From Reclinomonas americana ATCC 50394 (lineage: Eukaryota), in NCBI GenBank assembly GCA_048213135.1, contig PS015203.1, forward strand, positions 62,001 to 126,000: a DNA stretch of 64,000 nt. Reading direction: 5' to 3'. The notes under the pieces are model-generated. The model saw only the letters and a program-made list of their open reading frames with translations, was not told the origin of the DNA and made no database searches. Positions 14,736 through 64,000 of this stretch are shown piece by piece (positions within the stretch are counted from its first letter, which is position 1; each line of letters begins with the position of its first letter). The position numbers were made by a program, and so were the translations under genes.

Positions 14736-19713
<4,978 letters not shown>

Positions 19714-38748: not shown

Positions 38749-39372
38749 CGTGTGTGTGAGAGAGAGAGGGAGAGAGAGACTGCATCTGAGTCATTCCTTG
38801 CACTGGACTTATCGGTCTCCCTTTTTCCTCTCCCTCACTCACTCTCTCTCTCTCTCTCTGTGTGCGNNNNNNNNNNNNNNNNNNNNNNNNNNNNNNNNNN
38901 NNNNNNNNNNNNNNNNNNNNNNNNNNNNNNNNNNNNNNNNNNNNNNNNNNNNNNNNNNNNNNNNNNNNNNNNNNNNNNNNNNNNNNNNNNNNNNNNNNNN
39001 NNNNNNNNNNNNNNNNNNNNNNNNNNNNNNNNNNNNNNNNNNNNNNNNNNNNNNNNNNNNNNNNNNNNNNNNNNNNNNNNNNNNNNNNNNNNNNNNNNNN
39101 NNNNNNNNNNNNNNNNNNNNNNNNNNNNNNNNNNNNNNNNNNNNNNNNNNNNNNNNNNNNNNNNNNNNNNNNNNNNNNNNNNNNNNNNNNNNNNNNNNNN
39201 NNNNNNNNNNNNNNNNNNNNNNNCTCTCTCTCTTTCGTCGACTGCACTGAGCATGCAGATGCGTACGTATACGCACATACACATGTGTGCGCAGAGTATG
39301 CATCGTTCTTGTGTGCATGCAGTCGCGCTCTTTGTCGTGTATTGCAGCATTAGACACACACACACACACGCA

Positions 39373-39406
<34 letters not shown>

Positions 39407-41237: not shown

Positions 41238-44200
41238 TCACAGCACCACACCTGCAGCCTCTCTTGCACGTCGTCGACAGAACATCAGCGCAGTGACCGC
41301 ATCCTTCGTATCCTGATGCCGTTCACCAAGCACCGCTCGACAACCATCAACACACTCCACCAATATTGCTTCTGCCTCGGCACACCGTTTCACCCTCGTG
41401 AGCACAATACCACAATTGCGCATCACAAACAATGTCTTCACATGCAAGTCTCCAAGTACCTCCCGCCGGGCGTGCAGGCACTCAAGTAACAAACCAGCAG
41501 CCTCCGCCATTGATTCCGGTGTGTTCTGCCGATTGAGTGAATTCGAAAGATTGCACATCGAGATGAGAGTGTCGGGATGGCGAGCACCAACTGCTGCTCG
41601 TCTCAACAGCAAGCATTCTCTGTCGAGTCGAATTTTCTCCTCCAGACGCGCACCATCTTCGATACACAAAGCCACGTCACTCATGGACGCCAGTGTGTCG
41701 GGATGTTCTGTTCCAAGCACCAGTCGTCGAACTTCCCAGCACTGTCGATAAAGAGTCTCCGCATCAGCAAACCGTTTCCGATCAAAATGGGTCAATGCCC
41801 TATAAAAGAGCGCTGTCAGCGAGTCCGGATGACTCTCACCCAGTGTCGCGCACTGCCGCTCATGACACTGCACCAAGCGTGGCAAGTCGCCTGAAAAGTG
41901 ACCAAACCACATCAAGCACCTAAAGGCGTCAATTTTATCGAGCACAGTCATCTCGCCAGTGCCATCTCCCTCCCACTCCTCGCACAACCCCCACGCATGC
42001 CCCCACGCTGTTTTGCGCTCATTCCCCTGAAGAAGCATGGAATGCAACCATCCTTGACACTTTGCCACCACGATGGCGAACCGTCGTCGCATTGGACTCA
42101 TCTCCATATCTCCAACTTCATGGTGTGCACACTCCGTCACGCGTTGAACAAGTGAACCAGCCACAGCTGCATCGAAGCCGACTGAAGGCAGTCGACCACC
42201 TTCACACAGCTCACCAATCCACTCCACCGCGCCACACTGCACCAGCAGCCCATTCACACCAACAGCATTCCTCGCCCACATCCCGTCGTCCTCACCCAAC
42301 CGTCGCCACACCGGGTGCAGCACACTGAGCAAGTCACGAGACACCAGCAGCACGCCGTCACTGTCAATCTGTGAATCAATCCCATTCAACACACAACACA
42401 CAAGTCGCACAATCAGTCGCTGCATCCGTGACACGGCATCTCCACACCGTCCCACAATCCACCCAGCAATCTCGTCGTGCACTCGATACTCCATCACCAC
42501 GTTGCTCTCCCTCACCTGCTCACCACATAATACACGAGCCACAAAATCCATGCTGCCACTGACACCCACCGTCACCAGATTCGACAAACACAGACCCTCC
42601 AGCACATCCTCCACTCCTTCCTCAACTCCACCACCAATCACCAACTCGTCACGCCGTACACGCACTCTTCGCTCCTCTTCCTCACTCATCTCGTCAAACT
42701 GCAGCCGCTCACCCACCACCTCGGGAGCACGACGTCGTCTCTGCCGTGCCAGCTCATGCAGTCGCAGTCGACGCACACACTGGCCCAACTCCACCAATCG
42801 ACTTGCCGCCTCCTCATCTTCATCACCATCACCATCCACAGCCATCGTCATATCGGGAATCACACGCAGCACGCCCAGCGCCACTCGTGCGAGTGCCACT
42901 GTCACCGACAAGCCGAGCTCCTTGCACGCCGTGATCAGCACCAACAGACGACGTGCTGCTGCTGTCTGTGACATCACATTGCATTCCAGTAGCTGTGAAA
43001 GTGCATCACCACCGATGCCACTCAGTACCTCCTCCAGTCGCGCTCCCACCAGCTGCGCAGGTGATTGGGACAGCAACCAGCTGCATGCCAGAAGGGAGAG
43101 AAGTAGTGAGTCTTCTCATGCACACCACTCCCCCACGCACTCAAAGCACTCACCCAACACAAGCACTCACTCGCAGTGCACTCTTCTCCTGTTGTCCACT
43201 CTCCAGCGCCTCCACAATTCGTCGACGCACGTCCCCCGACACCCTTTGCAGAAGTCGCTCCTCCACCAGCTGAACAATGTCCTCATTCTCCACGCTCTCC
43301 ACTCTCACGCACTCGACCTCTGCCTCGTGCATCATCGAGTCACGGATCTCATCCGTAACCCGCCCATATCGACTCGTCACCACCACAATCGGTGCCACCA
43401 TTCCACCTGCACACAGAAACACACACGATGTACATCAAGTCAGGATCCAACATCCAAGCAAGAATGAGAATTCTCTCTCTCCTGAAACGCACCCTCATCA
43501 GCACATTGAACAACACTCCTCACTTGCTCCGCCGATCCCACGTTGTCCAACACCATCACTCCACTCGATGCGTGCATCAACTGTCGCAGGAGACGGCGTG
43601 CTGGCTCCACTTCGCCACTTGCCAGCAGCGCATCCACCTGGCCGGCCATCCTTCGTCCCTCCACTTCATCCACTCGCATCTGTGCCGACACAAAGGCACG
43701 CAGACACTCGCCCAGAGCACTCCCCGCCTGCAGCACGTGGCAAGGGGAGAGTAGAGTCAGAATGACAACAGCAGGAGATGACGCAACATGAAAAGACAAC
43801 ATGCATGTTCCTCAGCACACCTTCACATGCTCCCTTGCATCACCCACATGACCACGCATCTCCACAGACACGGCCGATCCCTTCCATCGACGAGTCGCCA
43901 GCAACTCGGTCACCAGCAGCTCGGCTAGGAACGACTTGCCAGTGCCACCATCACCCGTCAGCACCACCATGATTGGTTGGTGTGCTGCGCAGGAATCATC
44001 CGCCACCAGACAACATGATGAGGCACGCGAATGTGGAAGAAGGAGGGGAGAGGGAGAATGAGGAGCACCCAACCTTCCACTGCCGCCACGATGCGCGTGG
44101 CGAGTGAGGCTGCCAGTGCCCGCCGACTTGGGAAGCGGAATGCAGTCACTGGATTGACGGTGCGGGCGATCAGCAGCGATGTCTTGGGTGTGAGACTGCT

Positions 44201-45623
44201 GTCTGGTGCTGTGTGGCACAGAGAGGAGTGAGTGAAGGAGCACAGCGATGCACAATCCATGCAGATCAACCATGGAACGCACCTGCAGCTGAGAGAGAAG
44301 AGGGAGAGGCGCTCATCGGGTCGTCTCCTTCGTGCATTTCCATCCGCATCTGATCAATTGACATGCAAGTGAGGAACAGAAAGTTATCTGCAAATGACCG
44401 CCTCGTCATGCAAACCCACTCAACTTGCTCCATGTGTGCCAGCAGCGAGTCTTGGTCAGCCTGACTCAGCGCACCTGCATTCACACACGCACAACCAAGA
44501 GAGCATCAGCATCCACATTCAATCCAAACACAAACAAGCACCAGCCATCTCTCTCCTCTGCACTCACCATCACGAGCCTCGTTCAGCTGCACCACCAATT
44601 CCTCCTCCATATCCCTGCCAATCTGCAGTCGCCGCACAAGCTGATGCAACTCGCCCTCTCCTCCTCCTCCGTCGCCGAGCAGATCTAGAGGCACAAAGAG
44701 TGCACGAGCTCGTGCGGGACTCGCATGCTCAAACACCTCCCTCATTCGCTCAATTGCATTGCGCTGTGTGACAACGAGAGAGTGAGAGGCACAATCACAC
44801 ACAGAGAGAGGGAGACCACACTCCTCCTCCTTCCTTCTCATTCTCGTACACACTCACCACATCGCCAGCTGGAATCAGACGATCCGGCTCGTCTCGCGGG
44901 TGCTCTCGATGACCCGCCAGCAGCAAGATCGAGCAGCACAGCATCGCACCAAATGAACTGCAGTCGTGCAGCTGGCCTCGCTGATGCCACTCGCGCACCA
45001 GCTGCCGCTCCTTCTCGTTCAACTGGACACACATGTCCACTCCGTCTGGCATCGTGCTGCACGGTGGGGAAAGCCACGAAGACAGAATGGATGCTGGTGA
45101 GTGAGGGAATGTGTGGCAAGAAAGAGGGCGATTCATCAGGGATAGAACGTGGAGATGAGTGTGGTGAGACAATGAAGAGTGCGAGAATGGGGAAGAAAGG
45201 GGGATGACCAGTGCATTACAATCTGCCACTTGCTCTGGCAATCTTTTCTCTTCTCCTCCATCTGCATCTTGCCATCTATGTGCTTCGGCATCCTCCCCCA
45301 CACGCACTCACCGCACATCACGCTCACTCGGCGCCTTGCACCACTCGTCAACGTGATTCACACCGGGATACGAATCGAGAAACGCCGGCAGCACTTGCTC
45401 GAGTTTGGATTGCAGAGCGCGGGTGCATGGACGTGACAGGGCTTTGGCAAGGCGAATCATGCATCCCTCATCACCAGGAACACCATCGTGATGATGACTG
45501 CACGACAGGAGAGGAGAAGAGATAGAACGAATCATACACAAGGTGAGAATGATGATGATGACGTAACAACAACAAAACGAGAGACACACGCAACTCAAGC
45601 GGCACTCCACTCCCACTCGCCAT
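41238..45623 (-). CDS. NLR-like STAND protein copy 1: putative HEPN - NB-ARC-like - TPR (11 exons)
   Basis: ATG 45623 (MASGSGVP); Walker A GDGGTGKS, Walker B VMVLDNV, sensor VVVTSR, MHD-like YRVHD, 42-aa TPRs (LGxxHPDTL); all junctions GT-AG and in phase. Confidence 0.85.
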
Positions 45624-46006
45624 GATGATGCGTCACAACAACAAGCACAACAACAACAACACTGACAGATGCACAGGGGAAAGACACACTCTCTCTCCAG
45701 AAGTGGACTAATGCAACAGCTCGCTCTCCTTCTCTCTTGCACACACGCACGCACACAGTGGAGAATGACACTGCCACAGAACAGAACAGAGAACGCACAA
45801 TCTCACTTCTGCTCACACGCTGTTTTACACAATTGTGGGACATGACTTCGTCGGAGTGAATGCGGGCTCACAAGACAGGAACAGAATGTCGTCATGAAGA
45901 GAGACTTGTGTTTGTATGCACACTGTGCCATGACACACGTAACAGTGGAGACTGATAGTCAAGACGAAACGTCGAGAGATAGTCTTGAGCGACAGAGAGG
46001 TCAACT

Positions 46007-49000
46007 TCATTGTAACAGCACGCCGGCCCTTCTTGCACGTCGCCGGCACTCGGTCAACATCCTAATGGTATTCATAGTCTTTGGATTCTCTTCACCAAGC
46101 ACCGCTCGCCGACCATCCACGCACTCCACCAGCAGCGCCTCTGCCTCCGCCCATTGTTGCTGCTCCATGAGCAGAATGCCGTCGTTGAATATTGTCTCCA
46201 ATGTTCGTTCATGCCTATCGCCCAGCAACTCACGTCGTCCCTCCACGCACTCACGGTACAAGTCAACAGCTTCCGCCAGTGATTCTGGTGTGCTTTGCTG
46301 CTCAAGAGCATCAGCAAGATTGTTCATAGAGATGAGAGTCTCGGGATGCTTGTCCCCCAGCGATGCTCGCTTCAACCACAAGCATTCTCTGTCCAGTTGC
46401 ACTCTCTCCTCCAAGCGACTGTCGTCTTGGATACACACGGCAACGTCGCTCATTGACACCAGTGTATCAGGATGCTCAGCACCAAGAACGTGTGCCTGCA
46501 TCTCCCAACACCGTCGATAGAGTATCTCTGCAGCAGCAAACTGCTGCCGCTTGTAGTGGTCTACGCCCTGGTTATACAGCGTCATAAGCGAGTCCGGGTG
46601 ACTCTCACCCAGTGCCGCGCACTGACGCTCATGGCACTGCACCAGCAGTGGCAACTTCTCTGAACAGAGAGCAATCCACATAAAGCACCGCAGTGAGTCA
46701 AGTCTGTCCAGCACTGTCATCTCGCCAGTGCCATCTCTCTCCCTCTCCTCACATAAACGCCACGCTTGCTGCCACGCCGCTTTGCGCTCATCCCGCTGAA
46801 AAAGCATGCGATGCAATCGTGCTTGACACTTTGCAGCCGCCATGGAAAGCTTTCGTCGCGTTGGACTCATCTCAACATCGCCAGCTGCGCGTTCTTCACA
46901 CTCCGTCACACGCCTCACAATCGACGAGGCTACAGTTGCACCAAACCCACGTGGCGGAAGTTCTCCACTGCTACACAACCCAGCCATCCACTCCACTCCT
47001 CCGAATTGTACATGTAGCCCATTCACACCAACAGCATCTCTCACCCACATGCTGTCATCCTCGCCCAATCGTCGCCACACTGTGTGAAGCACACCGAGCA
47101 CGTCTCGTGATATTAACAACTTACCATCGCTGTCATTCCACAGATCAATGCCATTCAACACACAACACACAAGTCGCACGATCAGTCGCTGCGCCCGTGA
47201 CACTGCACCTCCACACCGTTCAACAATCCGCTCAGCAATCTCGTCGTGCACTCGATACTCCATCGCCACGTTGCTCTCCCTCACTTGCTCACCACAAAGC
47301 ACACGAGCCACACTGTCCATGCTGCCACTGACACCCACCGTCACCAGATTCGACAAGCACAGACCCTCCAGCACCTCCACCACCTCGTCTTCTCCGTCAC
47401 CACCACCACAAACCAACTCATCACGCTGCGCATGCACTCGCTGCTCCTCCTCCTCACTCATCTCGTCAAACTGCAGTCCCTCACCCACAACCGCAGGTGC
47501 ACGTCGTCGCCTCTCCTGTGCCAGCCCATGCAATCGCAGTCGACGCACACACTGGCTCAACTCCACCAGTCGACATGCCGCCTCTTCATCCTCATCCACA
47601 GCAGCCTGCCCACCACCATCACCATCCACAACCGCCGCCACATCGGGTATCACTCGCAGCACACCCAGTGCCACTCGTGCAAGTGCCCCAGTCACCGGCA
47701 AGCCGAGTTCCTTGCACGCCGTAATTAGAACCAACAGACGACGTGCTGCAGCTGTCTGTGACATCACATTGCGTTCCAGTAGCTGTGAAAGTGCATCACC
47801 ACCGATGCCACTCAGTACCTCCTCCAGTCGCGCTCCCACCAGCTGTGATGGCGATTGTGACAGCAACCAGCTGCATGACGAAGAAAACAAGAGAGAAGAG
47901 TGAGTTGTCTCATTCACAACCACTCACACAATCACTCACTCACTCACCCAACACAAGCACTCACTCGCAGTGCACTCTTCTCCTGCTGTCCACCCTCCAG
48001 CGCCTCCACAATCTGTCGTCGCACATCCCCCGACACCCTTTGCAGAAGTCGCTCCTCCACCAGCTGCACAATGTCCTCGTTCTCTACACTCTCCACTCGC
48101 ACGCACTCGACCTCCGCCTCGTGCATCATCGAGTCACGGATCTCATCCGCAACCCGCCCATATCGACTCGTCACCACCACAATCGGTGCCACCATTCCAC
48201 CTGCACACACGCATGATGAACATCAAGTCAGGATCAAAAATCCAAGCAAGAACGAATTCTCTCTCTCCTGAAACGAACCCTCATCAGCACATTGAACCAC
48301 ACTCCTCACTTGCTCCGCCGATCCCACATTGTCCAGCACCATCACTCCACTCGATGCATGCATCAGCTGTCGCAGGAGACGACGCGCTGGCTCCACTTCG
48401 CCACTCGCCAGCAGCGCATCCACCTGACCGGCCATCCTTCGTCCGTCTACTTCGTCCATTCGCATCTGTGCCGTCACAAAGGCACGCAGACACTCGCCCA
48501 GAGCACTCTCCGCCTGCAGCATGCGGCAAGGAGAGAGGGAGAGAGTCAGAATGACAGGGAAGGAGATGGTGCATGAAAGAAAACATGCATGCTCATCAGC
48601 ACACCTTCACGTGCTCCCTCGCATCACCCACATGACCACGCATCTCCACCGACACGGCCGATCCCTTCCATCGACGAGTGGCCATCAATTCGGTCACCAG
48701 CAGCTCGGCCAGGAATGACTTGCCAGTGCCACCATCACCCGTCAGCACCACAATGATTGGACGATGTGCTGCGCAAGAGTCATCCACCACAAGACAAACA
48801 TGATAAGACAAACGAATGTGAGGGAAGAAAGTAAGGGAGAATGAGAAGGAACATCCGACCTTCAACAGCATCCACAATGCGCGTGGCGAGTGAGGTTGCC
48901 AGTGCACGTCGACTTGGGAAGCGGAATGTGGTCACTGGATTGACGTTGCGGGCGATGAGCGGTGTCCTGGGTGGGCGACTGCTGTCGAACGCTGTGTGGC

Positions 49001-50381
49001 ACAGAGTGAGTGAGAGTGAGCACAGCAATCCATGTTGAATGCAGATCAACCGTGGAACACACCTGCAGTTGAGAGAGAAGAGGGAGAGGCGCTCATCGGG
49101 TCGTCTCCTTCGGGCATTTCCAATCGCATCTCCTCAAACCACGTAAAATGAGAAACTGAAAGTTATCTGCAAATGACCGCCTCGTCATGCAAACCCACTC
49201 AACTTGCTCCATGTGTGCCAGTATCAACGACCGGTCCGCTTGACTCAGCGCACCTGCATTCACACACAACCAAGACAGCATCAGCTTCCACATTCAATCA
49301 CATTATCCACACACTCAAGCGCCAGTTATCTGTCTCCCCACTCACCATCACGAGCCTCGTTCAGCTGCACCACCAGCTCCTCCTCCACATCCCTGCCAAT
49401 CTGCAGTCGTCGCACAAGCTGGCGCAACTCGCCCTCTCCTCCACTCGTCCTGTCACCAAGCAGAGGCACAAAGAGTGCACGAGCTCGTGCGGGACTCGCC
49501 TGCTCAAACACCTCCCTCATTCGCTCAATTGCATTGTGCTGTGTAACAATGAGAGAGTGTGAGGCACAATCACACAGACAGAGAACACACTCCTCCTCCT
49601 TCCTATCTCCTTCCCATTCTCACACACGCACCACATCGCCAGCTGGAATCAGACGATCTGGCTCGTCTCTCGGGTGCTCTCGATGACCCGCCAACAACAA
49701 GATCGAGCAGCACAGCATCGCATCAAACAGACTGCAGTCGTGCAGCTGGCCTCGCTGATGCCACTCGCGCACCAGCTGGCGTTCCTTCTCGCTCAACTGG
49801 ACACACGTGTCCACTCCATCGGGCATGGTGCTGCTTGTGGGGAAGGGAAAAAAAAAAAGAAGAGGATGCTGGTGAGTGAGGGAGATGTGCGACAAGAAAA
49901 AAGGGGATTCAACGGGATAGGAGGTGGAGACGAGTGCGAGAACGGGGAGAGAGATGGCCAGAGCGTCACCGTCAGCCATGTGCCTGTAACAATCTTTTCT
50001 CTTCTCTCCACTCTCATTCACATCTGCATAATGCCATCGTGTGCTTCCACATCCTCCCCCACACACACTCACCGCACATCACGCTCACTCGGCGCCTTGC
50101 GCCACTCGTCAACGTGATTCACACCGGGATACGAATCGAGAAACGCCGGCAGCACTTGCTCGAGTTTGGATTGCAGAGCGCGGGTGCATGGACGTGACAG
50201 GGCTTTGGCAAGACGCATCATGCATTCCTCGTCACCGCCATCGTGATGATGACTGCACGAGAGGAGTGGAGAGTGACAGGGAACGAATCACACAATGTGA
50301 GAGATGATGATGATGCATCTGACAACAACACAATGAGACAGAGACACGCAACTCACGCGACACTCCACTCCCACTCGCCAT
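46007..50381 (-). CDS. NLR-like STAND protein copy 2: putative HEPN - NB-ARC-like - TPR
   Basis: Same exon series and motifs as copy 1; ATG 50381, stop 46007. Confidence 0.85.
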
Positions 50382-50801
50382 GATGATGCGTCAGCAACAA
50401 GAGCAACAACAACAGCACACTGACAGGGAAAGACACGCGCGCTCTCTCTCTCACACAATAAGAAGCAAAGAAATACAACAGCACACTCTCCTTCTCTCTT
50501 GCACACACGCACGCACACAGGGGGGAATGAAACAGATAGAGAACAGAACAGAAAACACACAAGCGTACTACTGCTCACAGAAGCAGGAGTGAATCCGTCT
50601 CTCTGGGACGCTATCGGCGGACGACGTCGTACGTACGTGCTGGCTCGCGAGGCAGAATAGCGCGTCTTCGAGGGGTGGATTTACACGCTATGCCGTGGCT
50701 CGCTTACCGGTGGAAACATCGCTGAACAAGATGAAACGTCGAGATATCGTCCAGGTGTTCTTGAAGATGAGAGGAATGCAGTGAGCAGGTTCACTCATGA
50801 T

Positions 50802-53800
50802 TCACAACACAACACCGGCCTTTCTTGCACGTCGCCGGCACTCGGTCAACATCCTAATGGTATTCATAGTCTTTGCATTCTCTTCACCAAGCACCGCTCG
50901 CCGACCATCCACGCACTCCACCAGCAGCGCCTCTGCCTCCGCCCATCGTTGCTGCTTCATGAGCAAAATGCCGAAGTTACACATCGTCGACAGCATGCCT
51001 TCATGTCTGTCACCCAGCACCTCACGTCTTCCCTCAAAGCACTCACGGTACAAGTCAACAGCTTCCGCCAGTGATTCCGGAGTGTTTCGTCGCTCGACAG
51101 ATAATGCAAAATTGTTCATCGAGGCGAGAGTCTCTGGATGCTTGTCCCCCAGCGATGCTCGCTTCAACCGCAAGCATTCTCTGTCCAGTTGCACTCTCTC
51201 CTCCAAGCGACTGTCGTCTTGGATACACACGGCAACATTGCTCATGCACTTCAACGTGTCGGGATGCTCAGCACCAAGAACGTGTGCCTGCATCTCCCAA
51301 CACCGTCGATAGAGTATCTCTGCAGCAGCAAACTGCTGCCGCTTGTAGTGGTCTACGCCCTGGTTATGCAGCGTCATTAGCGAGTCCGGGTGACTCTCAC
51401 CCAGTGCCGCGCACTGACGCTCATGGCACTGCACCAGCAGTGGCAACTTCTCTGAACAGAGAGCAAACCACATAAAGCACCTCAAGGCGTCAATCCTATC
51501 GAGCACAGTCATCTCGCCATAGCCATCCCTCTCCCACTCCTCGCACAACCCCCACGCATGCCCCCACGCTGTTTTGCGCTCATCCCGCTGAAAAAGCATG
51601 CGATGCAATCGTGCTTGACACTTTGCAGCCGCCAGAGAGAACCTTCGTCGCGTTGGACTCATCTCAACATCGCCAACTGCGCGTTCTTCACACTCCGTCA
51701 CACGCCTCACAATCGACGAGGCTACAGTTGCACCAAACCCACGTGGCGGAAGTTGGCCACTGCTACACAACCCAGCCATCCACTCCACTCCTCCGAATTG
51801 TACAAGCAACCCATTCACACCAACACCATCACTCGCCCAAATGCCGTCATCCTCACCAAACCGACGCCACACCGGGTGCAGCACACTGAGCAAGTCACGA
51901 GACACCAGCAACACGCCGTCGCTGTCATTCCAAAGATCAATGCCATTCAGCGCACAACACACAAGTCGCACGATCAGTCGCTGCACTCGTGATACTGCAT
52001 AGCCACACCGTCCCGCAATCCACCCAGCAATCTCGTCGTGCACTCGATACTCCATCACCACGTTGGTCTCCCTCACTTGCTCACCACAAAGCACACGAGC
52101 TACACTGTCCACGCTGCCACTGGCACCCACCGTCACCAGATTCGATAAACACAGACCGTCCAGCACATCCTCCACCTCGTCTTCTCCGTCACCACCACCA
52201 CCCACCAACTCATCACGCCGTGCGCGCACTCTTCGCTCCTCCTCCTCACTCATCTCGTCAAACTGCAATCGCTCACCCACCACCTCAGGCGCACGCCGTC
52301 GCCTCTGCCGTGCCAGCTCATGCAGTCGCAATCGACGCACACACTGACTCAACTCCACCAGCCGACCTGCCGCTTCCTCATCTTCATCACCATCACCATC
52401 CACAACCACCGCCACATCGGGAAGCACACGCAGCACACCCAGCGCCACTCGTGCAAGTGCCAGCGTCACAGGCAAGCCGAGTTCCTTGCACGCCGTGATC
52501 AACACCAACAGACGACGTGCTGCTGCTGTCTGCGACATCACATTGCGTTCCAGCAGCTGCGACAGCGCATCGCCACCAACACCACTCAGCACCTCATCCA
52601 GTCGCGATCCAACCAGCTGTGCGGGTGATTGCGACAACAACCAGCTGCACGATACAAAAGAGGAAGAAGAGTGAGTCTTCTCATCCGCACACCTTACTCA
52701 TTCACACATAACACTCACCCAACACAAGCACTCACTCGCAGTGCACTCTTCTCCTGTTGTCCACTCTCCAGTGCCTCCACAATCCGCCTTCGTACGTCCC
52801 CCGACACCCTTTGCAGAAGTCGCTCCTCCACCAGCTGCACAATGTCCTCGTTTTCCACACTCTCCACTCGCACGCACTCGACCTCCGCCTCGTGCATCAT
52901 CGAGTCACGAATCTCATCAGCCACCTGTCCGTATCGACTCGTCACTACCACAATCGGTGCCACCATTCCACCTGCACACACGCATGATGAACATCAAGTC
53001 AGGATCAAAAATCCAAGCAAGAACGAATTCTCTCTCTCCTGAAACGAACCCTCATCAGCACATTGAACCACACTCCTCACTTGCTCCGCCGATCCCACAT
53101 TGTCCAGCACCATCACGCCACTCGAGGCATGCATCATCTGCCGCAGGAGACGGCGTGCTGGCTCCACTTCGCCACTTGCCAGCAGCGCATCCACTTGACC
53201 GGCCATTCTTCGTCCCTCTACTTCGTCCATTCGCATCTGTACCGTCACAAAGGCACGCAGACACTCGCCCAGAGCACTCTCCGCCTGCAGCATGGGGCAG
53301 GGAGAGAGAGAGTCAGAATGCCAACAGAATGACGAAGCATCATGAAAGACAACATGCATGTTCGTCACACACCTTCACATGCTCCCTCGCATCACCCACA
53401 TGACCACGCATCTCTACCGACACGGCCGATCCCTTCCATCGACGAGTCGCCAGCAACTCGGTCACCAGTAGCTCGGCCAGGAATGACTTGCCAGTGCCAC
53501 CGTCACCCGTCAGCACCACCACGATCGGATGATGTGCTGCACAGAATCATCCAGCACCAGCCATCACGATGAGGCACACGAATGTGGAGAAGGAAGGGAG
53601 AATGAGAAGGAGCACCCAACCTTCCACTGCCGCCACGATGCGCGTGGCGAGTGAGGTGGCCAGTGCACGTCGACTGGGGAAGCGGAATGCAGTCACTGGA
53701 TTGACAGTGCGGGCGATGAGAGGTGTCTTGGGTGGGCGACTGCTGTTCGGTGCTGTGTGGCACAGAGAGGAGTGAGTGAATGAGCACAGCGATGCACAAT

Positions 53801-55111
53801 CCATGCAGAACAATCATGGAACGCACCTGCTACTGGAGGAGAGGAGGGTGAGGCGCTCATCGGGTCGTCTCCTTCGTGCACTTCCATTCGCACCTGATCA
53901 ATCGCATACAAGTGAGAAACTGATTGGTATCTGCAAAAGACCGCTCTCTTGCGCAAATCCACTCAACTTGTTCCATGTGCGCCAGCAGCGAGTCTTGGTC
54001 AGCCTGACTCAGCGCACCTGCATTCACACACAACCAAGAGAGCATCAGCATCCACATTCAATCCAAACACAAACAAGCACCAGCCATCTCTCTCCCTCCA
54101 CTCACCATCACGAGCCTCATTCAGCTGCACCACCAATTCCTCCTCCACATCCCTGCCAATCTGGAGGCGCCGCACAAGCTGATGCAGCTCGCCTTCTTCT
54201 CCTCCTCCGTCGCCGAGCAGAGGCACGAAGAGTGCACGAGCTCGTGCGGGACTCGCTTGCTCAAACATCTCCCGCATTCGCTCAATCGCATTGCGCTTTG
54301 TGACAACGAGAGAGTCTGAGAGCAGAATCACACAGAGAGATCACACTCCTTTTCATCTCCACTCATTCTCACGCACTCACCACATCGCCAGCTGGAATCA
54401 GACAATCTGGCTCGTCTCTCGGGTGCTCTCGATGACCCGCCAACAACAAAATCGAGCAGCACAGCATCGCATCAAACAGACTGCAGTCGTGCAGCTGGCC
54501 TCGCTGATGCCACTCGCGCACCAGCTGGCGCTCCTTCTCGTTCAACTGGACACACATGTCCACTCCGTCTGGCATGGTGCTGCATTGTGGGGATGGAAAA
54601 AAAAAAGAAGGATGCTGGTGAGTGAGGGAGATGTGCGACAAGAAAAAGGGGATTCAACGAGATAGGAGGTGGAGTCGAGTGCGAGAACGGGGAGAGAGAT
54701 GGCCAGAGCGTCACCGTCAGTCATGTGCTTGTGACAATCTTTTCTCTTCTCTCCACTCTCATTCACATCTGCATAATGCCATCGTGTTCTTCCACATCCA
54801 CCCTAAACACTCACCGCACATCACGCTCACTTGGCACCTTGCACCACTCGGCGACATGATTCACACCGGGATACGAATCGAGAAACGCCGGCAGCACTTG
54901 CTCGAGTTTGGATTGCAGAGCGCGGGTGCATGGACGTGACAGGGCTTTGGCAAGGCGAATGGCACATTCCTCATCGCCAGCATCGTGATGATGACTGCAC
55001 GAGAGAGAGAGAGGAGAGTGACAGGGAACGAATCACACACAAAGAATGATGCATCTGACAACAACACAATGAGACACGCAACTCACGCGGCACTCCACTC
55101 CCACTCGCCAT
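50802..55111 (-). CDS. NLR-like STAND protein copy 3: putative HEPN - NB-ARC-like - TPR
   Basis: Same exon series and motifs; ATG 55111, stop 50802. Confidence 0.85.
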
Positions 55112-55172
55112 GATGATGCGTCACAGGAAGAACAGCAACAACAGCACACTGACAGATGGACGGGGGAATGAA

Positions 55173-55212
<40 letters not shown>

Positions 55213-55530
55213 ACAATAAGAAGCGGAGAAATGCAACAACTCACTCTCCTTCCTTTCCTCTCTCACACACGCACGCACACAGTGGAGAATGACACTGCCA
55301 CAGAACAGAACAGAGAACGCACAATCTCACTTCTGCTCACACGCTGTTTTACACAATTGTGGGACATGACTTCGTCGGAGTGAATGCGGGCTCACAAGAC
55401 AGGAACAGAATGTCGTCATGAAGAGAGACTTGTGTTTGTATGCACACTGTGCCATGACACACGCTACAGTGGAGACTGATAGTCAAGACGAAACGTCGAG
55501 AGATAGTCTTGAGCGACAGAGAGGTCAACT

Positions 55531-58500
55531 TCATTGTAACAGCACGCCGGCCCTTCTTGCACGTCGTCGGCACTCGGTCAACATCCTAATGGTATACATA
55601 GTCTTTGGATTCTCTTCACCAAGCACCGCTCGCCGACCATCCACGCACTCCACCAGCAGCGCCTCTGCCTCCGCCCATCGCTGCAGCTTCATGTGCAAAA
55701 TGCCGAAGTTACACATCGTCGCCAATGTATCTTCGTCCCTGTCACCCAGCACCTCACGTCTTCCCTCAAAGCACTCACGGTACAAGTCAACAGCTTCCGC
55801 CAGTGATTCCGGAGTGTTTCGTCGCTCGACAGATAATGCAAAATTGTTCATCGAGGCGAGGGTCTCTGGATGCTTGTCCCCCAGCGATGCTCGCTTCAAC
55901 CACAAGCATTCTCTGTCCAGTTGCACTCTCTCCTCCAAGCGACTGTCGTCTTGGATACACACGGCAACATGGCTCATTGACACCAGTGTATCAGGATGCT
56001 CAGCACCAAGAACATGTGCCTGTATCTCCCAGCACCGTCGATAGAGTATCTCTGCAGCAGCATACTGCTGCCGCATGTAGTGGTCTACGCCCTGGTTATG
56101 CAGCGTCATTAGCGAGTCCGGGTGACTCTCACCCAGTGCCGCGCACTGACGCTCATGGCACTGCACCAGCAGTGGCAAGCTCTCTGAACAGAGAGCAATC
56201 CACATCAAGCACCGCAGTGAGTCAAGTCTGTCCAGCACTGTCATCTCGCCACTGCCATCACTCTCCCACTCCTCACATAAACGCCACGCTTGCTGCCACG
56301 CCACTTTGCGCTCATCCCACTGAAAAAGCATGCGATGCAATCGTGCTTGACACTTTGCAGCCGCCATGGAGAACCTTCGTCGCGTTGGACTCATCTCAAG
56401 ATCGCCAACTGCGCGTTCTTCACACTCCGTCACAAGTCTCACAATCGACGAGGCTACAGTTGCACCAAACCCACGTGGCGGAAGTTGGCCATTGCTGCAC
56501 AACCCAGCCATCCACTCCACTCCGCCGAATTGTACAAGCAGCCCATTCACACCAACAGCATCTCTCACCCACATGCTGTCATCCTCACCCAACTGTCGCC
56601 ACACTGCGTGCAACACACCGAGCAAGTCACGTGATACCAACAGCACGCCGTCACTGTCATTCCACAGATCAACGCCATTCAACACACAGCACACCAGTCG
56701 CACAATCAGCCGCTGCACTCGTGACACTGCATCGCCACATCGTCCCGCAATCCACCCAGCAATCTCGTCGTGCACTCGATACTCCATCACCACGTTGCTC
56801 TCCCTCACTTGCTCACCACACAACACACGAGCCACACTGTCCATGCTGCCACTGACACCCACCGCCATCAGATTCGACAAGCACAGACCCTCCAGCACCT
56901 CCTCCACTCCGTCGTCACCACCGCCCACCAACTCATCACGCCGTGCACGCACTCGCTGCTCCTCCTCCTCACTCAACTCGTCAAACTGCAGTCGCCCACC
57001 TACCGCCTCGGGCGCACGTCGTCGCCTCTGCCGTGCCAGCTCATGCAGTCGCAGTCGACGCACACACTGACTCAACTCCACCAGTCGACCTGCCGCTTCC
57101 TCATCTTCATCACCATCACCATCCACAACCACCGCCACATCGGGTATCACTCGCAGCACACCCAGTGCCACTCGTGCGAGTGCAGCAGTCACTGGCAAGC
57201 CGAGTTCCTTGCACGCCGTGATCAACACCAACAGACGACGCGCTGCTGCTGTCTGTGACATCACATTGCGCTCCAGCAGCTGCGACAGCGCGTCGCCACC
57301 AATGCCACTCAGCACCTCCTCCAGTCGCGCGCCCACCAGGTGCGCTGGCGACTGGGACAGCAACCAGCTGCATGCCAGAAGGGAGAGAGAAGAGTGAGTC
57401 TTCCCATCCACACCACTCTCCCACGCACTCAAAGCACTCACCCAATACAACCACTCACTCGCAGTGCACTCTTCTCCTGTTGTCCACTCTCCAGCGCTTC
57501 CACGATCCGTTTTCGTACATCCTGTGACACCTTGTGGAGCAGTCGCTCCTCCACCAGCTGCACAATATCCTCGTTCTCCACGCTCTCCACTCGCACGCAC
57601 TCGACCTCTGCCTCGTAAACCATCGAGTCACGAATCTCATCAGCCACTCGCTCATACCGACTCGTCACCACGACGACCGGTGCCACCATTCCATCTGATG
57701 ATGCACATCAAGTCAGGATCCAACATCCAAGCAAGAATGAGAGTTCTCTCTCATGAAATACACACCCTCATCAGCACATTGAACAACATTCCTCACTTGC
57801 TCCGCCGATCCCACATTGTCCAGCACCATCACTCCACTCGATGCATGCATCAGCTGTCGCAGCAGTCGACGTGCTGGCTCCACCTCGCCACTTGCCAGCA
57901 GCGCATCCACCTGACCGGCCATCCTTCTTCCCTCTACTTCATCCACACGCATCTGCGCCATCACAAAGGCACGAAGACACTCGCCAAGGGCACTCTCCGC
58001 CTACAGAATGTAGCAGGGAGAGAGAGTCAGAATGACAGTAGAAGGAGACGACGAAGCACGAATGACGACATGCATGTTCCATCAGCACACACCTTCACAT
58101 GTTCCCTCGCATCGCCCACATGACCACGCATCTCCACCGACACGGCCGATCCCTTCCATCGACGAGTCGCCTGCAACTCGGTCACCAGCAGCTCCGCCAG
58201 GAACGACTTACCAGTGCCACCGTCACCCGTCAGCACCACCATGATTGGTTGATGGGCTGCACAAGAAATCATCAACCACCAGACAACATGATGAGGCACA
58301 CGAATGTGGAAGAAGGAGGGGAGAAGGAGAAGGAACACCCAACCTTCCACAGCGTCCACAATGCGTGTGGCGAGCGAGGAAGCCAGTGCACGCCGACTCG
58401 GGAAGCGGAATGTGGTCACCGGATTGACGGTGCGGGCGATAAGCGATGTCTTGGGTGGGCGGCTGCTGTCTAGTGCTGAGTGCCACAGAGGAGTGAGTGT

Positions 58501-59942
58501 ATGAGCAGCAATGCACATTCAATGCAGATCTATCATGGCGCGCACCTGCAGCTGAGGGAGAAGAGGGAGAGATGCTCATTGTGTCAAATCGTTGGTGCAT
58601 TTCCATTCGCATCTGATAAATGACAAGCAAGTGAGAAACTGATAGGTATCTGAAAGTTACCGCCTCATGAAAATCCACTCAACTTGCTCCATTTGTGCTA
58701 GCAGCAACGGCCGGTCCGCCTGACTCAGCGCACCTGCATTCACACACAACCAAGAGAGCATCAGCATCCACATTCAATCCAAACACAAACAAGCATCAGC
58801 CATCTGTCTCTCTCCACTCACCATCACGAGCCTCGTTCAGCTGCACCACCAATTCTTCCTCCACATCCCTGCCAATCTGCAGCTGCCGCACAAGCTGATG
58901 CAGCTCGCCCTCTCCTCCTCCTCCTCCGAGCAGAGGCACAAAGAGTGCACGTGCTCGTGCTGGACTCGCTTGCTCAAACACCTCCCTCATTCGGTCAATC
59001 GCATTGCGCTGAGGCAATGAGAGAGTGAGAAACATAATCACACAGAGAGGGAGATCACACTCTTCCTCCTCCTTCCCATCTCGCCTCCCTCTACACACTC
59101 ACCACATCACCAGCTGGAATCAGACGATCCGGCTCGTCTCGCGGGTGCTCTCGATGACCCGCCAGCAGCAAGATCGAGCAGCACAGCATCGCACCAAATG
59201 AACTGCAGTCGTGCAGCAGGCCTCGCTGACGCCACTCGCGCACCAGCTGACGCTCCTTCTCGTTCAACTGGACACATTTGGCCACTCCGTCTGGCATGGT
59301 GCTGCGCGTGGGGAAAGGGACAAACAAAGAGAGGATGCTGGCGAGTGAGGGAGATGTGCGACAAGAAAAAGGGGATTCATCAGGGATGGAATGTGGAGTC
59401 GTGTGGTGAAATAATGAAGAGTGAGAGATGGGGAGAAAGGGTGACCAGTGCAGTCACTATCTGCCACTTTCTAGCAATCTTCTCTCTTCTCTCTCTCACT
59501 CATTCACATCTCCATCTGCATCCTGCCATCGTGTGCTTCCACATCATCCCCACACACTCACCGCACATCACGCTCACTCGGCGCCTTGCACCACTCGGCA
59601 ACATGATTCACACCGGGATATGAATCGAGAAACGCCGGCAGCACTTGCTCGAGTTTGGATTGCAAAGCGCGGGTGCATGGATGAGACAGTGCCTTGGCAA
59701 GGCGAATCACGCATTCCTCATCACCAGCATCGTGATCATGACTGCACGGGAGAGGAGAGTGACAGGGAACGGATCACACACACACACACACACACATACA
59801 CATACACACACACACATACACATACACACACACATACACACACACAGTGTGAGAACGATGATGATGATGACGATGATGCATCTGACAACAACATAATGAG
59901 GGAGACACGCAACTCACGCGGCACTCCACTCCCACTCGCCAT
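55531..59942 (-). CDS. NLR-like STAND protein copy 4: putative HEPN - NB-ARC-like - TPR
   Basis: Same exon series and motifs; ATG 59942, stop 55531. Confidence 0.85.
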
Positions 59943-60003
59943 GATGATGTGTCACAATACAAGAACAACACCAGCACGATGCACCGAGGAGCACGCTCTC
60001 TTT

Positions 60004-60042
<39 letters not shown>

Positions 60043-60414
60043 TTGTCACAATACGAAGCGGAGAAATGCAACAACTCACTCTCCTTCCTTTCCTCTCTCA
60101 CACACGCACGCACAGTGGAAAAAGGCACTTACACAGAGCAGAAACAAGAACAAACACGCACTGCTCACACGCTGGTTATTTACACAATTGTGGGACATGA
60201 CTTCGTCGGTGTGTGCATTGCTTGCCTACAACACAGAGCAGCGAGCCGACGAGGAGAGATACTTGGTACCCGATACTTGTGCTCACAGATGTGGCATGGT
60301 GCACGCGCCGGTGGAATCATCGGGGTAACACGACGACGTCGCAAAGGCGTTCACGGAGAAGAGAGGATCGGCTTGTAACAAACAAAACACTTCATTCACC
60401 GGTACCACAATTAT

Positions 60415-63400
60415 TCACTGCTTCACGCCGGCTTCTCTAGCACGCCGCCGGCACTCGGCCAGTGCAGCAACGGCCGCCATTGTATCGGAATGGCCTTCAT
60501 CAAGGACCTTTTCCATACCACGCACACACTCCACCAGCAGCGCCTCCGCCTCGGCCCACCGCTGGTGCCTCATGAGCATGTCACCATAGTTACACATCGT
60601 CTCCAAAGTCTCTACATGCATTCTTCCAAGTACCACTCTATGTCCCTCCAAGCACTCTCGGTACAAATCTGCAGCTTCTGCCAGTGATTCCGGCGTGTTT
60701 TGTCGTTCCAGAGCATCAGCAAGATTGTTCATCGAGATGAGAGTGTCTGGATGCCGATCTCCCAGTTTCGAACGCGACAACTGCAAAGACTGTCTCTCAA
60801 GTTGAATCCTTTCCGCCAGACGACTGTCATCTTGAATAGATGCAGCAAGATTGCCCATGGACACCAAAGTGTCGAGATGCTCATCACCGAGAACCGATTG
60901 TCGCATGTCAAAGCATCGTCGGAAGACAGCTTCCGCATCGGTATATCCGCCGATATTAAAGTGATATTTGCCCTGCCAGTACATGGCCAATAGCGAGTCC
61001 GGATGACTGTCACCCAGTGTCGCACGCTGCCGCTCATGACACAGCACCAGTTGAGACAAGTTGTTTGAATAGAATGCACACCACATCAAGCACCGCAACG
61101 TGTCAATCTTATCTAGCACAGTCATCTCGTCACCGTGATCTCTCTCCCACTCTTCGCACAGACGCCACGCCTGCTGCCACGCCGCTTTGCAATCAGCAGC
61201 CCGACGGAGCAACAACCAAGCTTGGCACTTTTCTGAAGCAATCGCTAATCGTCGTCGCAGTGGACTGATCTCAACATCACCATCTTCACCTTCTCCACAT
61301 TCTGACACTCGTCGCACAAGCAATGAGGCCACTGCGTCGTCAAATCCAACAGATGGCAATTTTCCTCCGACACACTGCAAACCGATCCATCCCAAAGCTA
61401 CACACTGTCCCAGCAACCCATTCACACCAACAGTATCACTCGCCCACATGTCGTCGTCGTCGCCCAACCTTCGCCACACAGTGTTCAGTACACTAAGCAA
61501 GTCACGCGACACCAAAAGCACACCATCACTGTCGTTTAGTGTATCAATGCCATTCAGCACACAACACACCAGTCGCACAATCAGCCGCTGTGTCCTGGAT
61601 ACAGCATACTCCCACCGTCCAACAATCCACCTAGCAATCTCGTTGTCAACTTGATACTCAACAACAACACCGCTCCGTTGCTCAATCGAGCCACACAGTA
61701 TTTGGGCCAAACTATCCATGCTGCCACTGACTTCCACCGTTACCAGATTCGAGACGCACAGACCCTCAAGCACATCCTCCACTCCGTCGTCCTCACCACC
61801 ACCACCACCCACCAACTCATCACGCCGTGCACGCACTCGCTGCTCCTCCTCCTCACTCAACTCGTCAAACTGCAGTTCCTCACCCACCACCTCACGCGCA
61901 TACCGTCGCCTCTCTCGAGCCAGCCCATGCAGTCGCAGTCGGCGAACACACTGACCCAACTCTACCAACCGGGTTGCCGCCTCCTCATCTTCATCCGCAG
62001 CAGCCTGCCTACTATCACCACCGTCATCAGGAATCGCCAAATCGGGAATTACCCGCAACACACCCAGAGCCACTCGTGCAAAGCCTGGTGTCACTGGCAA
62101 GCCGAGTTCCTTGCACGCCGTGATCAGCACCAACCGACGACGTGCTTCTGCTGTCTGCGACATCACATTGTGTTCCAGCAGCTGCGACAGCGCCTCTTCA
62201 CCAACGTCACGCAGGACTTCTTCCAGTCGTGCGCCGACCAGCTTTCCTGGAGACTGCGCATGCGACAGCAACCAGCTGCACCACAAGGAGAAGAGAGAAG
62301 AGTTAGGCATCACATCCACACCACTCTTACTCACCCAATCACTTACTTAACACAAGCGCTTACTCGCAAGGCACTCTTATTCTGCTGTCCGTTCTCCATC
62401 GCCTCCACAATCCGCCGTCGCACCGCTCCCGAAACCACTCCACGAAGTCGCTCTTCCACCAATTGCACAATATCTTCTTTCTTCACATCCTTCACTTGCT
62501 CGCACTCCACAATTGCATGATGTTCCATCGAGTCACGAATCTCATCCGCCAACCACCCATGTCGACTCGTAACCACCACAATCGGTGCAACCAGTCCATC
62601 TGCACGTAGAAACACAGACACACACACGATGGACAAAAGGTCAGGACCAAACATCCAAGCAAGAATGGATTTCTCTCTCACGCACACGCACCCTCGTCAG
62701 CACATTGAACAACATTCGTCACTTGCTCTGACGATCCCACATCGTCCAGCACCAATACTCCACTCGATGCATGCATCAGCTGTCGCAGGTGACGACGTGC
62801 TGGCTCCACCGCACTACTCGCCAGCAGCGCATCTACCTCACCGGCCATCCTTGGTCCCTCCTGTGTATCCACTCGCATCTTCGCCGTCACAAACGCACGC
62901 AGACACTCGCCCAGAGCACGCTCCGCCTGCAGCGCATGTCAAGAGAGACCAAGTCAGAAAGGCAACAGAAGGATCTCAGATGGTGCTTCAGGAAAGACAA
63001 CATGCACCTTCACATGCTCTCTCGCATCACCCACATGGCCTCGCATCTCCACCTGCACGGCAGATCCTGTCCACCGACCGGTGGCCTGCAACTCGGTCAC
63101 CACAAGGTCGGCCAGGAACGATTTGCCAGTGCCACCATCACCCGTCAGCACTACAATAATTGGACGTCTTGCTATAGACGTACATCGTCATCAAAGACAA
63201 TTTGATAAGACAAATGAGTGTGGAAAAGAAAGAAAGACGGAAACGACCAACCTTCAGCAGCACACACTATGCGTTCTGCAAGTGAGATTGCCAATGCACG
63301 GCGACTGGGGAATCGGTAAGTAGTCACTGGATTGATGATGCGGGCAATGAGCGGTGACCGAAGTACTGTGGCATCGAGTCAGTAACTGAGCACTGTAGAG

Positions 63401-64000
63401 TCCGTGCACCAGTGCAAATGTTGCTTGATACATGTACAGATAGTTTCTCTGCTGCTCACCTGGATGCAAGCGCAACCGAAACACGTTGAGCGCATACTCG
63501 GACAACCTGTGCCGCTGTACGGGTTCTTGTTGTCGGTCCAGTGGTTGCGCGTTGGGAATCAGAAGCCTGACTTGTTCGTGCCAATCATGCAGCGGCAAGT
63601 GCCCGTGGCTATTGATGGCCGCAACGAGCGCTTGCGCATATGGCGATGTGTAAACTGCAACGCACCGAACTTGCGCACGTCAGAAAAACCAGTAAACGGT
63701 ACGACGGAATTCTAGTCGTGACGCACCGCCCTCGTATGCTTCCCAGCCGTGATAGCAAGCAAAACTAACAAACACGTTTTGTGCCAGAACGCTCTCCTCA
63801 ATCGGGCCCACACCTTGTTGGAAGATGCTTCGCCCAGGCGCACAGAGAACAAGTGAGAAACAACAACACAAGCATCGCTCTGCAAAAACGTCTCACACCT
63901 ATCGAAGGAACGACAACAGTTCGTTAACAAGACGATTACTGTGCGCGTTGACGCTTTCTGGCGCAGTTGGTTCATGCAGTTCGCGATAAGCTTTAGCGAC
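60415..64000 (-). CDS. NLR-like STAND protein copy 5: caspase-like (peptidase C14) - NB-ARC-like - TPR (5' end off window)
   Basis: NTPase/TPR exons are homologous to copies 1-4 from 63365 downward. Upstream exons (64000-63899, 63827-63727, 63669-about 63460) splice in phase to VIVLLTNCCRS..NVFVSFACYHGWEAYEG..SPYAQALVAAI..HEQVR..QQEP. Confidence 0.8.

Follow-up and report, generated by a model that had tools for sequence, protein, structure and literature searches.

The question raised by the DNA described here is whether a tandem gene family of Reclinomonas americana encodes intracellular receptors of the kind that serves immunity elsewhere. The stretch analysed, referred to below as the window, comprises 64,000 nucleotides (nt) of strain ATCC 50394 (assembly GCA_048213135.1, contig PS015203.1, positions 62,001 to 126,000). 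Its right-hand third is occupied by five gene copies (g1 to g5) arranged head-to-tail on the minus strand with a period of ~4.8 kb. Plants, animals, fungi and bacteria commonly build their intracellular immunity on receptors that join a head domain, a STAND NTPase and a repeat region; to our knowledge, few such receptors have been documented in other eukaryotes. On balance, we think that the locus is probably a tandem array of at least five NLR-like, 'all-in-one' STAND receptor genes, likely to couple the sensing of non-self or danger to regulated cell death. Judged from its sequence, each protein would consist of an N-terminal output domain, a divergent NB-ARC-like switch, a helical spacer of ~280 residues and five tetratricopeptide repeats (TPRs) of the TPR_10 type.

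Each copy closes with a long open last exon of 1.8 kb (stop codons at 41238, 46007, 50802, 55531 and 60415). The genes were recognized as intron-containing and eukaryotic because their motifs sit in different frames and are split by short GT..AG intervals. An automatic gene predictor that takes splicing into account was trained on the long exons of all five copies; it gave reliable 3′ exons and noisy 5′ ends and skipped the pre-P-loop exon. Because of the noise at the 5′ end, gene models were built manually. Copy 2 was modelled by hand and checked by script, and its model was carried to copies 1, 3 and 4 through the alignment of the unit DNA. The model has eight exons: Ea, Eb and Ec for the head, the pre-P-loop, P-loop, Walker B and TSR exons, and a last exon that encodes the end of the NTPase module, the spacer and the TPRs. 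In g2 the introns measure 242, 93, 354, 91, 91, 78 and 77 nt. GT..AG boundaries occur at 7/7 homologous junctions in copies 1-4, giving open frames of 1061-1072 codons. For copy 5, GT/AG combinations were tried near the expected junctions; three of them gave an uninterrupted frame, of which we took the one that is homologous to g1-4.

Gap runs among copies 1-4 are multiples of three in 26/26 exon-column runs vs 17/102 intron-column runs. Pairwise ratios of nonsynonymous to synonymous substitution rates (dN/dS) among these copies are 0.16-0.26 in the head, 0.09-0.37 in the NTPase, 0.21-0.32 in the spacer and 0.27-0.44 in the TPRs. Given that exon indels come in threes and that dN/dS is low, the head exons are coding sequence under purifying selection, on the same strand and in the same phase as the NTPase exons. 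Every exon, the N-terminal ones included, is coding, and all modules are under purifying selection. The preliminary description of this DNA had spoken of five tandem, intact paralogues. Five copies with open frames are indeed present, and the open spliced frames together with dN/dS <1 suggest that copies 1-4 are intact; copy 5 is cut by the end of the window, so that nothing can be said of its intactness.

The middle of these proteins decides whether they belong with NLR-like switches at all. By its profile match the central domain is a STAND NTPase, since the match is colinear well beyond the P-loop and the controls score far lower. An alignment of the spliced g1-5 NTPase regions, compared by hhalign with a 32-sequence NB-ARC profile, gave a probability of 96.3% (E 1.9e-9, score 70.0), against a score of 13.9 for the reversed template and at most 18.5 in 20 column shuffles. 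The match spans 284 columns (at a permissive alignment threshold) and takes in F-x-x-R, Walker A, Walker B, TSR, 'L..ee...L' and the winged-helix His. The profile was drawn from 27/79 loci, chosen for a match that reached the N-terminal part of the query (26 with a P-loop), plus six database proteins. A 7-protein NB-ARC profile gave 44% (E 2.3e-4) over 171 colinear columns. With a NACHT profile (19/30 loci) the result was 91.4% (E 9e-7, score 52.6), and the NB-ARC and NACHT profiles match one another at 97.3%. In the one comparison made, NB-ARC is therefore tentatively the nearer clade. The assignment is tentative because the Pro of the GLPL motif is absent and the MHD-like His is aligned only in a low-confidence tail.

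The residues on which such a switch would depend appear intact: the Walker A Lys, the Walker B Asp, the TSR Arg and an MHD-like His. In six-frame translation, Walker A GDGGTGKS and VVVTSR were both read in 5/5 copies, with TSR invariant in the alignment, and the Asp of Walker B (GV[ML]VLD[ND]V) is invariant in 5/5. Opposite the Walker B and TSR segments, the NB-ARC profile reads 'LLVlDNa' and 'vLiTSR', at columns aligned with high confidence. The g2 domain appears to run on into the first ~115 codons of the last exon, to RLRLHGLA. The GLPL (GxP) motif of ARC1 was not recognized: ..SALRVSACVGWLLSQSP.. stands opposite 'G.LPLALeQA' with no Pro at the motif position, in a low-confidence region. 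These results agree with the preliminary description where it assigned GDGGTGKS, Walker B and VVVTSR to all copies and proposed an NB-ARC-like STAND chassis. Two of its details need adjusting. The pre-P-loop FRFPSRR (in its wording, a shared FRFPSRRALA) is found in 4/5 copies, the fifth reading YRFPSRRALA. The MHD-like position stands as the invariant His of RLRLH(E/G)LA, which faces 'MHRL' in the template, though only in the tail of the alignment, where confidence is low.

The C-terminal 42-residue TPRs that had been noticed earlier are also borne out. Five units stand in register, and Pfam places them in TPR_10 (E 2.9e-25 and 1.4e-25; 87.9 and 88.9 bits, cut-off 27.5) and TPR_12 (E 2.2e-21; 76.3 and 75.5 bits, cut-off 30.1). 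In the database, the TPRs matched best to kinase-TPR and NB-ARC-TPR proteins of bacteria and to fungal NLRs of the 'kinesin light chain' type, with 30-40% identity across one third of the query; the search with the last exon returned TPR proteins only. No leucine-rich repeat (LRR) family appeared in the Pfam output, and the predicted sensor is the TPR module. By its domain content the array has NLR architecture, yet is no NLR in the strict sense (NACHT/NB-ARC plus LRR). The spacer between the MHD-like His and the TPRs has no relatives in the searches made. A 370-residue stretch of g2 (46760-47869, most of the spacer) gave no match at E<=0.001 in 1.84e9 representatives, the 380 non-TPR residues of the last exon, in which the NTPase module ends, gave none in a word-indexed database search, and metagenome contigs scanned with the alignment of the last-exon His region (RLRLH) returned nothing. 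A similar scan with the Walker B alignment produced three 21-residue matches that were rejected as chance, the one examined (L001) lying in an out-of-frame open reading frame (ORF) opposite a long bacterial gene. An AlphaFold2 (AF2) model of the 370-residue middle region was unusable (predicted local distance difference test, pLDDT, 36.6). In the ESM Atlas, this region led to unnamed, 'Archaeal ATPase' and TPR clusters at 0.88-0.94, which we treat as leads only.

What distinguishes the copies from one another is their N-termini, and the history of the array can be read from where they diverge. Units 1-4 share 83-88% DNA identity across the whole unit; unit 5 is ~71% identical to the others and can be aligned only from the pre-P-loop exon onwards. 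DNA homology between units 5 and 2 sets in at 63359/48967, no farther than ~30 nt from the acceptor of this exon, and nothing aligns upstream. The two head types are unrelated (best blastp E 1.4). Both end in intron phase 1 and therefore have the matching phase that exon shuffling requires. The output domain has thus been exchanged at the phase-1 intron just upstream of the pre-P-loop exon. Both the two unrelated N-termini and the effector shuffling of the preliminary description are confirmed by these findings.

The other end of the proteins has a history of its own. In their heads and NTPases, copies 1-4 are 89-95% identical at the amino-acid level. The TPR sequences fall into three types (g1; g2-4; g5), with 56-60% identity between types and 88-91% within g2-4. 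At 59-60% identity, the g1 TPRs are as far from those of g2-4 as the g5 TPRs are, and their dS against g2-4 is 0.95-1.0, vs 0.13-0.37 in the g1 head and NTPase. The array is thus a mosaic in which recombination or gene conversion has acted between modules and has left three types of TPR and two of head. A single locus holds an output domain exchanged precisely at a phase-1 intron and a TPR sensor module that recombines independently of the head.

The head of copy 5 is caspase-like and matches the C-terminal half of Peptidase_C14, with the catalytic Cys aligned, in line with the one caspase-like head proposed earlier. The candidate catalytic Cys lies in VIVLLTNCCRS, in the exon at 63999-63897. 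We compared this head by hhalign with a Peptidase_C14 profile made of bacterial PF00656 segments from 29/30 loci (one partial match was left out). The probability was 93.6% (E 2.1e-7, score 45.5) over positions 102-213 of 218, with NCCR aligned on the catalytic 'DaCr' and its second Cys on the template Cys. Scores in the controls were 11.6 for the reversed profile, up to 15.3 in 20 shuffles and 13.5 for the head of copies 1-4. Pfam matched one g5 exon to Peptidase_C14 at E 0.31 (profile positions 180-224), under the cut-off. Taken together, these results suggest that, in an intron-bearing eukaryote, one and the same locus joins a caspase-like protease without intermediary to a switch of the NB-ARC-like kind.

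In copies 1-4, the head is a different matter. Its exons had no match in Pfam at E<=10, in PADLOC or among PDB sequences; exon Eb had none in the ESM Atlas, nor in a database search against longer proteins. Against 41 N-termini of fetched STAND proteins, the head scored at most 20.4, which is chance level. AF2 predicted four helices (pLDDT 69) for a 64-residue Ec fragment, which covers a third of the head and was read for secondary structure only. This moderately confident prediction would suit HEPN as well as a wide range of other helical domains and speaks against TIR. A head that is strongly conserved and has no family match could be a new cell-death effector.

The preliminary description had called these four heads HEPN-like. 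If they were DZIP3-type HEPN RNases, activation would lead to RNA degradation. DZIP3-type HEPN domains fused to TPRs and NACHT in animals, with an expansion in Capsaspora, and bacterial HEPN-STAND-TPR proteins are described in portions of PMC3710099 and would provide a precedent; a predicted helix of the copies 1-4 head opens with an 'R-N' dipeptide, which would fit, as would the all-helical prediction for the 64-residue Ec fragment. According to the same parts of that paper, HEPN domains are defined by Rx4-6H, in which the Arg is followed by a polar residue (PMC3710099). The corresponding segment reads RNAIER (g1, g3), RNAIDR (g4) or HNAIER (g2), with no His at +5 to +7; an Arg replaces the catalytic His at its expected position in all four copies, g2 also lacks the first Arg, and other R..H spacings in Eb vary between copies. 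Searched singly at E<=10, the three head exons matched no HEPN family, and no PDB, PADLOC, Atlas or database match was obtained; for PF18738 and PF18731, bacterial sequences were sought and none came back. The HEPN assignment was thus not upheld, and we regard it as quite unlikely.

A very divergent TIR-like (NADase-type) domain, which would make these genes TIR-STAND-TPR proteins, is more improbable still, to the point that we give it little credence. There is a local likeness (AGD-N-x-I/V-ERM-x-E) to the heads of actinobacterial TIR-NB-ARC-TPR proteins, and a 16-sequence profile built from these heads reached 18.1 in hhalign, a little more than any of 20 shuffles (<=15.9). The corresponding probability is just 1.3-1.4%, a 27-sequence TIR_2 profile scored 16.4 with shuffles reaching 15.1, Pfam found no TIR match, and Ec is predicted to form four helices with no strands at the positions of TIR strands C and D.

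Among the NLRs of plants, fungi and animals, adaptor or executioner heads occur most often, and a non-enzymatic helical domain of this kind (death-fold-like, coiled-coil/HeLo/MLKL-like or effector-associated) is a possible, still tentative, identity for the head. Such a domain would recruit a separate effector or act on membranes after oligomerization; adaptor and all-in-one designs are both discussed in sections of PMC4986451. The helices predicted in Ec, the lack of a catalytic-family signature in any search and the strong purifying selection on the head (dN/dS 0.16-0.26) are consistent with it. Against it, no search gave a positive match to such families, the Ec model is of moderate quality and covers a third of the head, and no partner gene was seen in the 64 kb, a search of the window for further copies having returned just the five.

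Based on the analogy with Apaf-1, plant and fungal NLRs and bacterial Avs/STAND systems, we predict that the receptors proposed here would work as follows. A ligand at the TPR and spacer region would lift autoinhibition, ADP would be swapped for ATP in the NTPase, and the NTPase would then oligomerize and gather the N-terminal domains. In copy 5, this would directly activate the caspase-like Cys protease with no CARD-type adaptor. In copies 1-4, a lineage-specific helical domain would be activated or exposed, and its action could be enzymatic, that of a membrane-active bundle or that of a homotypic adaptor.

The same chassis could also serve as a housekeeping or signalling STAND-TPR scaffold, NPHP3-like or regulator-like as in MalT/AfsR, with no role as an immune or cell-death receptor. 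In Pfam, the P-loop exon weakly resembles NPHP3_N (E 0.013) and last exons weakly resemble TPR_NPHP3 (E 8.2e-5 and 3.5e-3; cut-off 100 bits), in each case below threshold; purifying selection acts on all modules with no dN/dS >1; and NACHT-TPR proteins, NPHP3 among them, are described in parts of a recent preprint as having a head immediately N-terminal to the NTPase (bioRxiv 10.64898/2026.09.21.753143). Set against this are the tandem amplification, the three TPR types, the exchange with a caspase-like head and the mosaic recombination, which are typical of conflict genes, and a profile match that is better to NB-ARC than to NACHT. We therefore consider a scaffold unlikely and continue to favour NLR-like receptors.

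Several points weigh against that preference and have to be set beside it. The immune or cell-death function is assigned by analogy. On single exons (unspliced translations), Pfam NB-ARC (PF00931) and NACHT gave no match above the cut-off. The P-loop exon alone matched nSTAND3 (E 2.5e-4), AAA_16, NPHP3_N and NACHT, all under the cut-off, the Walker B and TSR exons gave nothing meaningful in Pfam, and searches of PDB sequences gave chance matches or none. With the spliced non-TPR part, phmmer found nothing significant among 120 fetched proteins (best E 0.07), single-sequence hhalign against the same number of fetched proteins aligned the P-loop alone, and hmmsearch with the purpose-built NB-ARC profile reached just 18-23 bits on the spliced proteins. 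PADLOC returned no Avs match; the P-loop exon gave generic matches only (TRIP13, E 9.8e-5; PtuA, E 1.5e-3), the TSR exon one weak match (E 0.019), and 8 of the 10 pieces searched no match at all. dN/dS peaks in the TPRs (up to 0.44) and never exceeds 1, so no diversifying selection is seen. The His-bearing half of the g5 caspase domain would lie beyond base 64000, the window holding only the Cys half.

The remaining points concern the 5′ part of the genes, where we infer from the sequence that the head exons are spliced to the NTPase exons. A block that is 100% conserved holds an ATG in favourable context (MASGSGV[P/S]), after which comes a phase-1 consensus donor. This phase is incompatible with Ea at its strong acceptor, so that the ATG exon is only a candidate start exon; it fits only a weak internal Ea acceptor (..CAAG/TG, giving ..LLPAFLDSYPG..). 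No upstream ATG in a frame fitting Ea was found in copies 2-4. The g1 donor after the ATG exon is TTGAGT (45598-45599) vs an otherwise invariant GTGAGT (50355-50356, 55085-55086 and 59916-59917), and a GT 9 nt downstream of the TT donor retains phase 1. The intron between head and NTPase (Ec to pre-P-loop) measures 346-359 nt, about 4x the usual 71-94 nt, and may hide a cassette exon. The candidate is a phase 1-1 cassette, 93 nt long with an open frame in copies 2-4 and 192 nt long in copy 1; its acceptor is CAG, and its donor, GTG[CT]G[TC], lies 70-74 nt ahead of the next exon. Whatever their answer, the questions of the start exon and the long intron leave the domain order unchanged.

Another candidate exon, 'Ed' (ALSQAD..MEQ), was rejected: it has no in-phase donor to the pre-P-loop exon, its region carries a 1-nt indel between copies, and a frame continued from the CTGCAG site runs into a stop in g3 and g4.

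The spacing of the genes also deserves mention. From the stop of one copy to the conserved ATG block of the next there are ~420 nt (about 50382-50801 and three other intergenic spacers), which leaves little room for a 3′ untranslated region (UTR), a promoter and a 5′ UTR; co-transcription or trans-splicing was therefore considered. The remaining genes of the window are ordinary eukaryotic ones (RCC1-like, PPP-type phosphatase, MORN repeats and an Atg3/Atg10-like active-site domain), and the ORF at 38835-40424, beyond two gaps, shows by eye a MORN-like YxGxxxxGxxHG segment in its translation. Ten N runs, 2,471 bases in total, are assembly gaps of this repeat-rich, unannotated assembly. Rfam and tRNA scans of the window returned nothing. 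Coordinates are collected in the table.

Table. Features of the array and its surroundings, in positions of the window (position 1 is its first letter)
Feature	Position	Strand	Remark
Gene 1 (g1), putative helical-head type	41238..45623	-	exons mapped from g2; open frame 1069 aa without start exon
g1 head exons	45497-45312, 45056-44858, 44763-44568; candidate start exon 45623-45590	-	
g1 NTPase and last exons	44208-44074, 43984-43821, 43727-43493, 43406-43154; 43080-41238	-	
Gene 2 (g2), putative helical-head type	46007..50381	-	open frame 1072 aa; acceptors all ..CAG, donors all GT
g2 head exons	Ea 50252-50073, Eb 49830-49632, Ec 49538-49346; candidate start exon 50381-50357	-	
g2 NTPase and last exons	pre-P-loop 48991-48860; P-loop 48768-48605; Walker B 48513-48279; TSR 48200-47948; last 47870-46007	-	
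g2 N-terminal head (Ea, Eb, Ec)	49346..50252	-	~190 aa; representative of g1-4
g2 STAND NTPase exons	47948..48991	-	FRFPSRRALA, Walker A GDGGTGKS, Walker B VMVLDNV, VVVTSR
g2 spacer	46676..47530 (approximate)	-	~280 aa between MHD-like His and TPRs; acidic low-complexity inserts
g2 TPR module	46010..46675	-	five 42-residue TPR_10-type repeats, in register
Candidate cassette exon	49063-49155 (g2) and homologous sites in g1, g3, g4	-	conserved ..MR.E.HEGDDPMSASPSS..
Gene 3 (g3), putative helical-head type	50802..55111	-	open frame 1064 aa; candidate start exon 55111-55087
g3 exons	54994-54815, 54579-54381, 54295-54106, 53752-53621, 53536-53373, 53284-53050, 52971-52719, 52644-50802	-	
Gene 4 (g4), putative helical-head type	55531..59942	-	open frame 1061 aa; candidate start exon 59942-59918
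g4 exons	59741-59562, 59301-59103, 59008-58822, 58475-58344, 58256-58093, 58000-57766, 57694-57442, 57367-55531	-	
Gene 5 (g5), caspase-like-head type	60415..64000	-	5′ end cut by window; open frame 1005 aa
g5 caspase-like (Peptidase_C14-like) half-domain	63460..63999	-	128 aa, three exons
g5 caspase-like exons (C-terminal half)	63999-63897, 63813-63727, 63654-63460	-	
g5 further exons	63365-63252 (pre-P-loop, YRFPSRRALA), 63171-63008, 62926-62686, 62599-62347, 62275-60415	-	
TPR modules of the other copies (approximate)	g1 41241-41906; g3 50805-51470; g4 55534-56199; g5 60418-61080	-	
RCC1-repeat protein	21380-22801	+	neighbour gene
Calcineurin-like (PPP-type) phosphatase	15626-17934	-	at least two exons
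Atg3/Atg10-like 'Autophagy_act_C' exon	27692-28333	+	neighbour gene
MORN-repeat coding exons	36626-37788 and about 40200-40424	-	directly downstream of gene 1; Pfam MORN E 4.7e-37, 5.4e-19
N runs	695-953, 6601-6732, 8200-8244, 13492-13931, 18527-18546		mostly bordered by (GA)n/(GT)n dinucleotide microsatellites
N runs (continued)	20688-20707, 35170-35272, 35899-36341, 38867-39223, 39523-40174		mostly bordered by (GA)n/(GT)n microsatellites

Proteins with a head, a STAND domain and TPRs are well known in fungi and bacteria. The bacterial and fungal NB-ARC-TPR proteins (for example the actinobacterial 'FxSxx-COOH system tetratricopeptide repeat protein' P0014/L004; fungal NLRs) have the same order of head, NTPase and TPR_10/TPR_12 repeats. 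The TPR part of the array is 30-40% identical to theirs, and its NTPase is colinear with their NB-ARC profile. In contrast to these proteins, however, the NTPase of the array is too divergent for detection with a single sequence and its GLPL-equivalent segment lacks the Pro. The array also differs in its relative-less spacer of ~280 residues, its spliceosomal introns and in having only five TPRs. Among the template relatives, L008, L015, L018, L042 and L046 (Actinoplanes-type) have TIR_2-like heads (..IFISYAG.D..) and are bacterial TIR-NB-ARC-TPR proteins.

In Ectocarpus, each TPR is reportedly a separate shuffled exon; in the array, by contrast, a single 1.8-kb exon encodes all TPRs, and it is the N-terminal head that has been shuffled. 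Passages of PMC4053784 note NB-ARC-TPR genes in Acanthamoeba and propose those of Ectocarpus as receptors, and diversification of the latter by exon shuffling is treated in part of PMC3341825. The array would likewise represent NB-ARC-TPR candidate receptors outside plants, animals and fungi, a likeness drawn by description only. HEPN-NACHT/TPR fusions with lineage-specific expansions are listed for animals and Capsaspora (PMC3710099, Table 1). These DZIP3-type proteins similarly carry their head on a STAND/TPR chassis, whereas the array has neither a HEPN match nor the His of Rx4-6H. A new head family directly upstream of NACHT-WD40/TPR proteins appears in portions of a 2026 preprint (bioRxiv 10.64898/2026.09.21.753143).

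The fusion predicted for copy 5 has its nearest counterpart in bacteria. As described in sections of two papers, metacaspase-STAND fusions are common in (multicellular) bacteria (PMC4986451; PMC3501461). In the accounts covered there, such proteins from cyanobacteria, Chloroflexi and actinobacteria have the same caspase fold directly N-terminal to a STAND domain and repeat sensor. Unlike them, g5 is eukaryotic and intron-containing, its caspase-like head is interchangeable with another head within one array, and only the Cys half is visible. A literature search, which was not exhaustive, found no eukaryotic caspase-NB-ARC-TPR fusion in print. Apaf-1/CED-4 has an NB-ARC-type switch that turns on a caspase through induced proximity; in Apaf-1 this caspase is a separate protein brought in by a CARD, and WD40 repeats serve as the sensor. 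The likeness to these proteins, one of design, would end where the g5 protease is part of the same polypeptide and the sensor is a TPR module. By these comparisons, what is new here is a very divergent family, a putative direct fusion with a caspase-like domain, a head swap at the level of an intron and an orphan head domain. Further, though we hold this to be somewhat doubtful, the array may represent a eukaryotic lineage, missing from present protein databases, with one-polypeptide, apoptosome-like machines, in which a caspase on an Apaf-1-type switch is exon-shuffled against an undescribed death or effector domain. The helical head of copies 1-4 and the spacer region searched, for which 1.84e9 representative proteins yielded no relatives, would then be new effector and sensor modules, and the array a living intermediate between bacterial caspase-STAND proteins and adaptor-based signalling.

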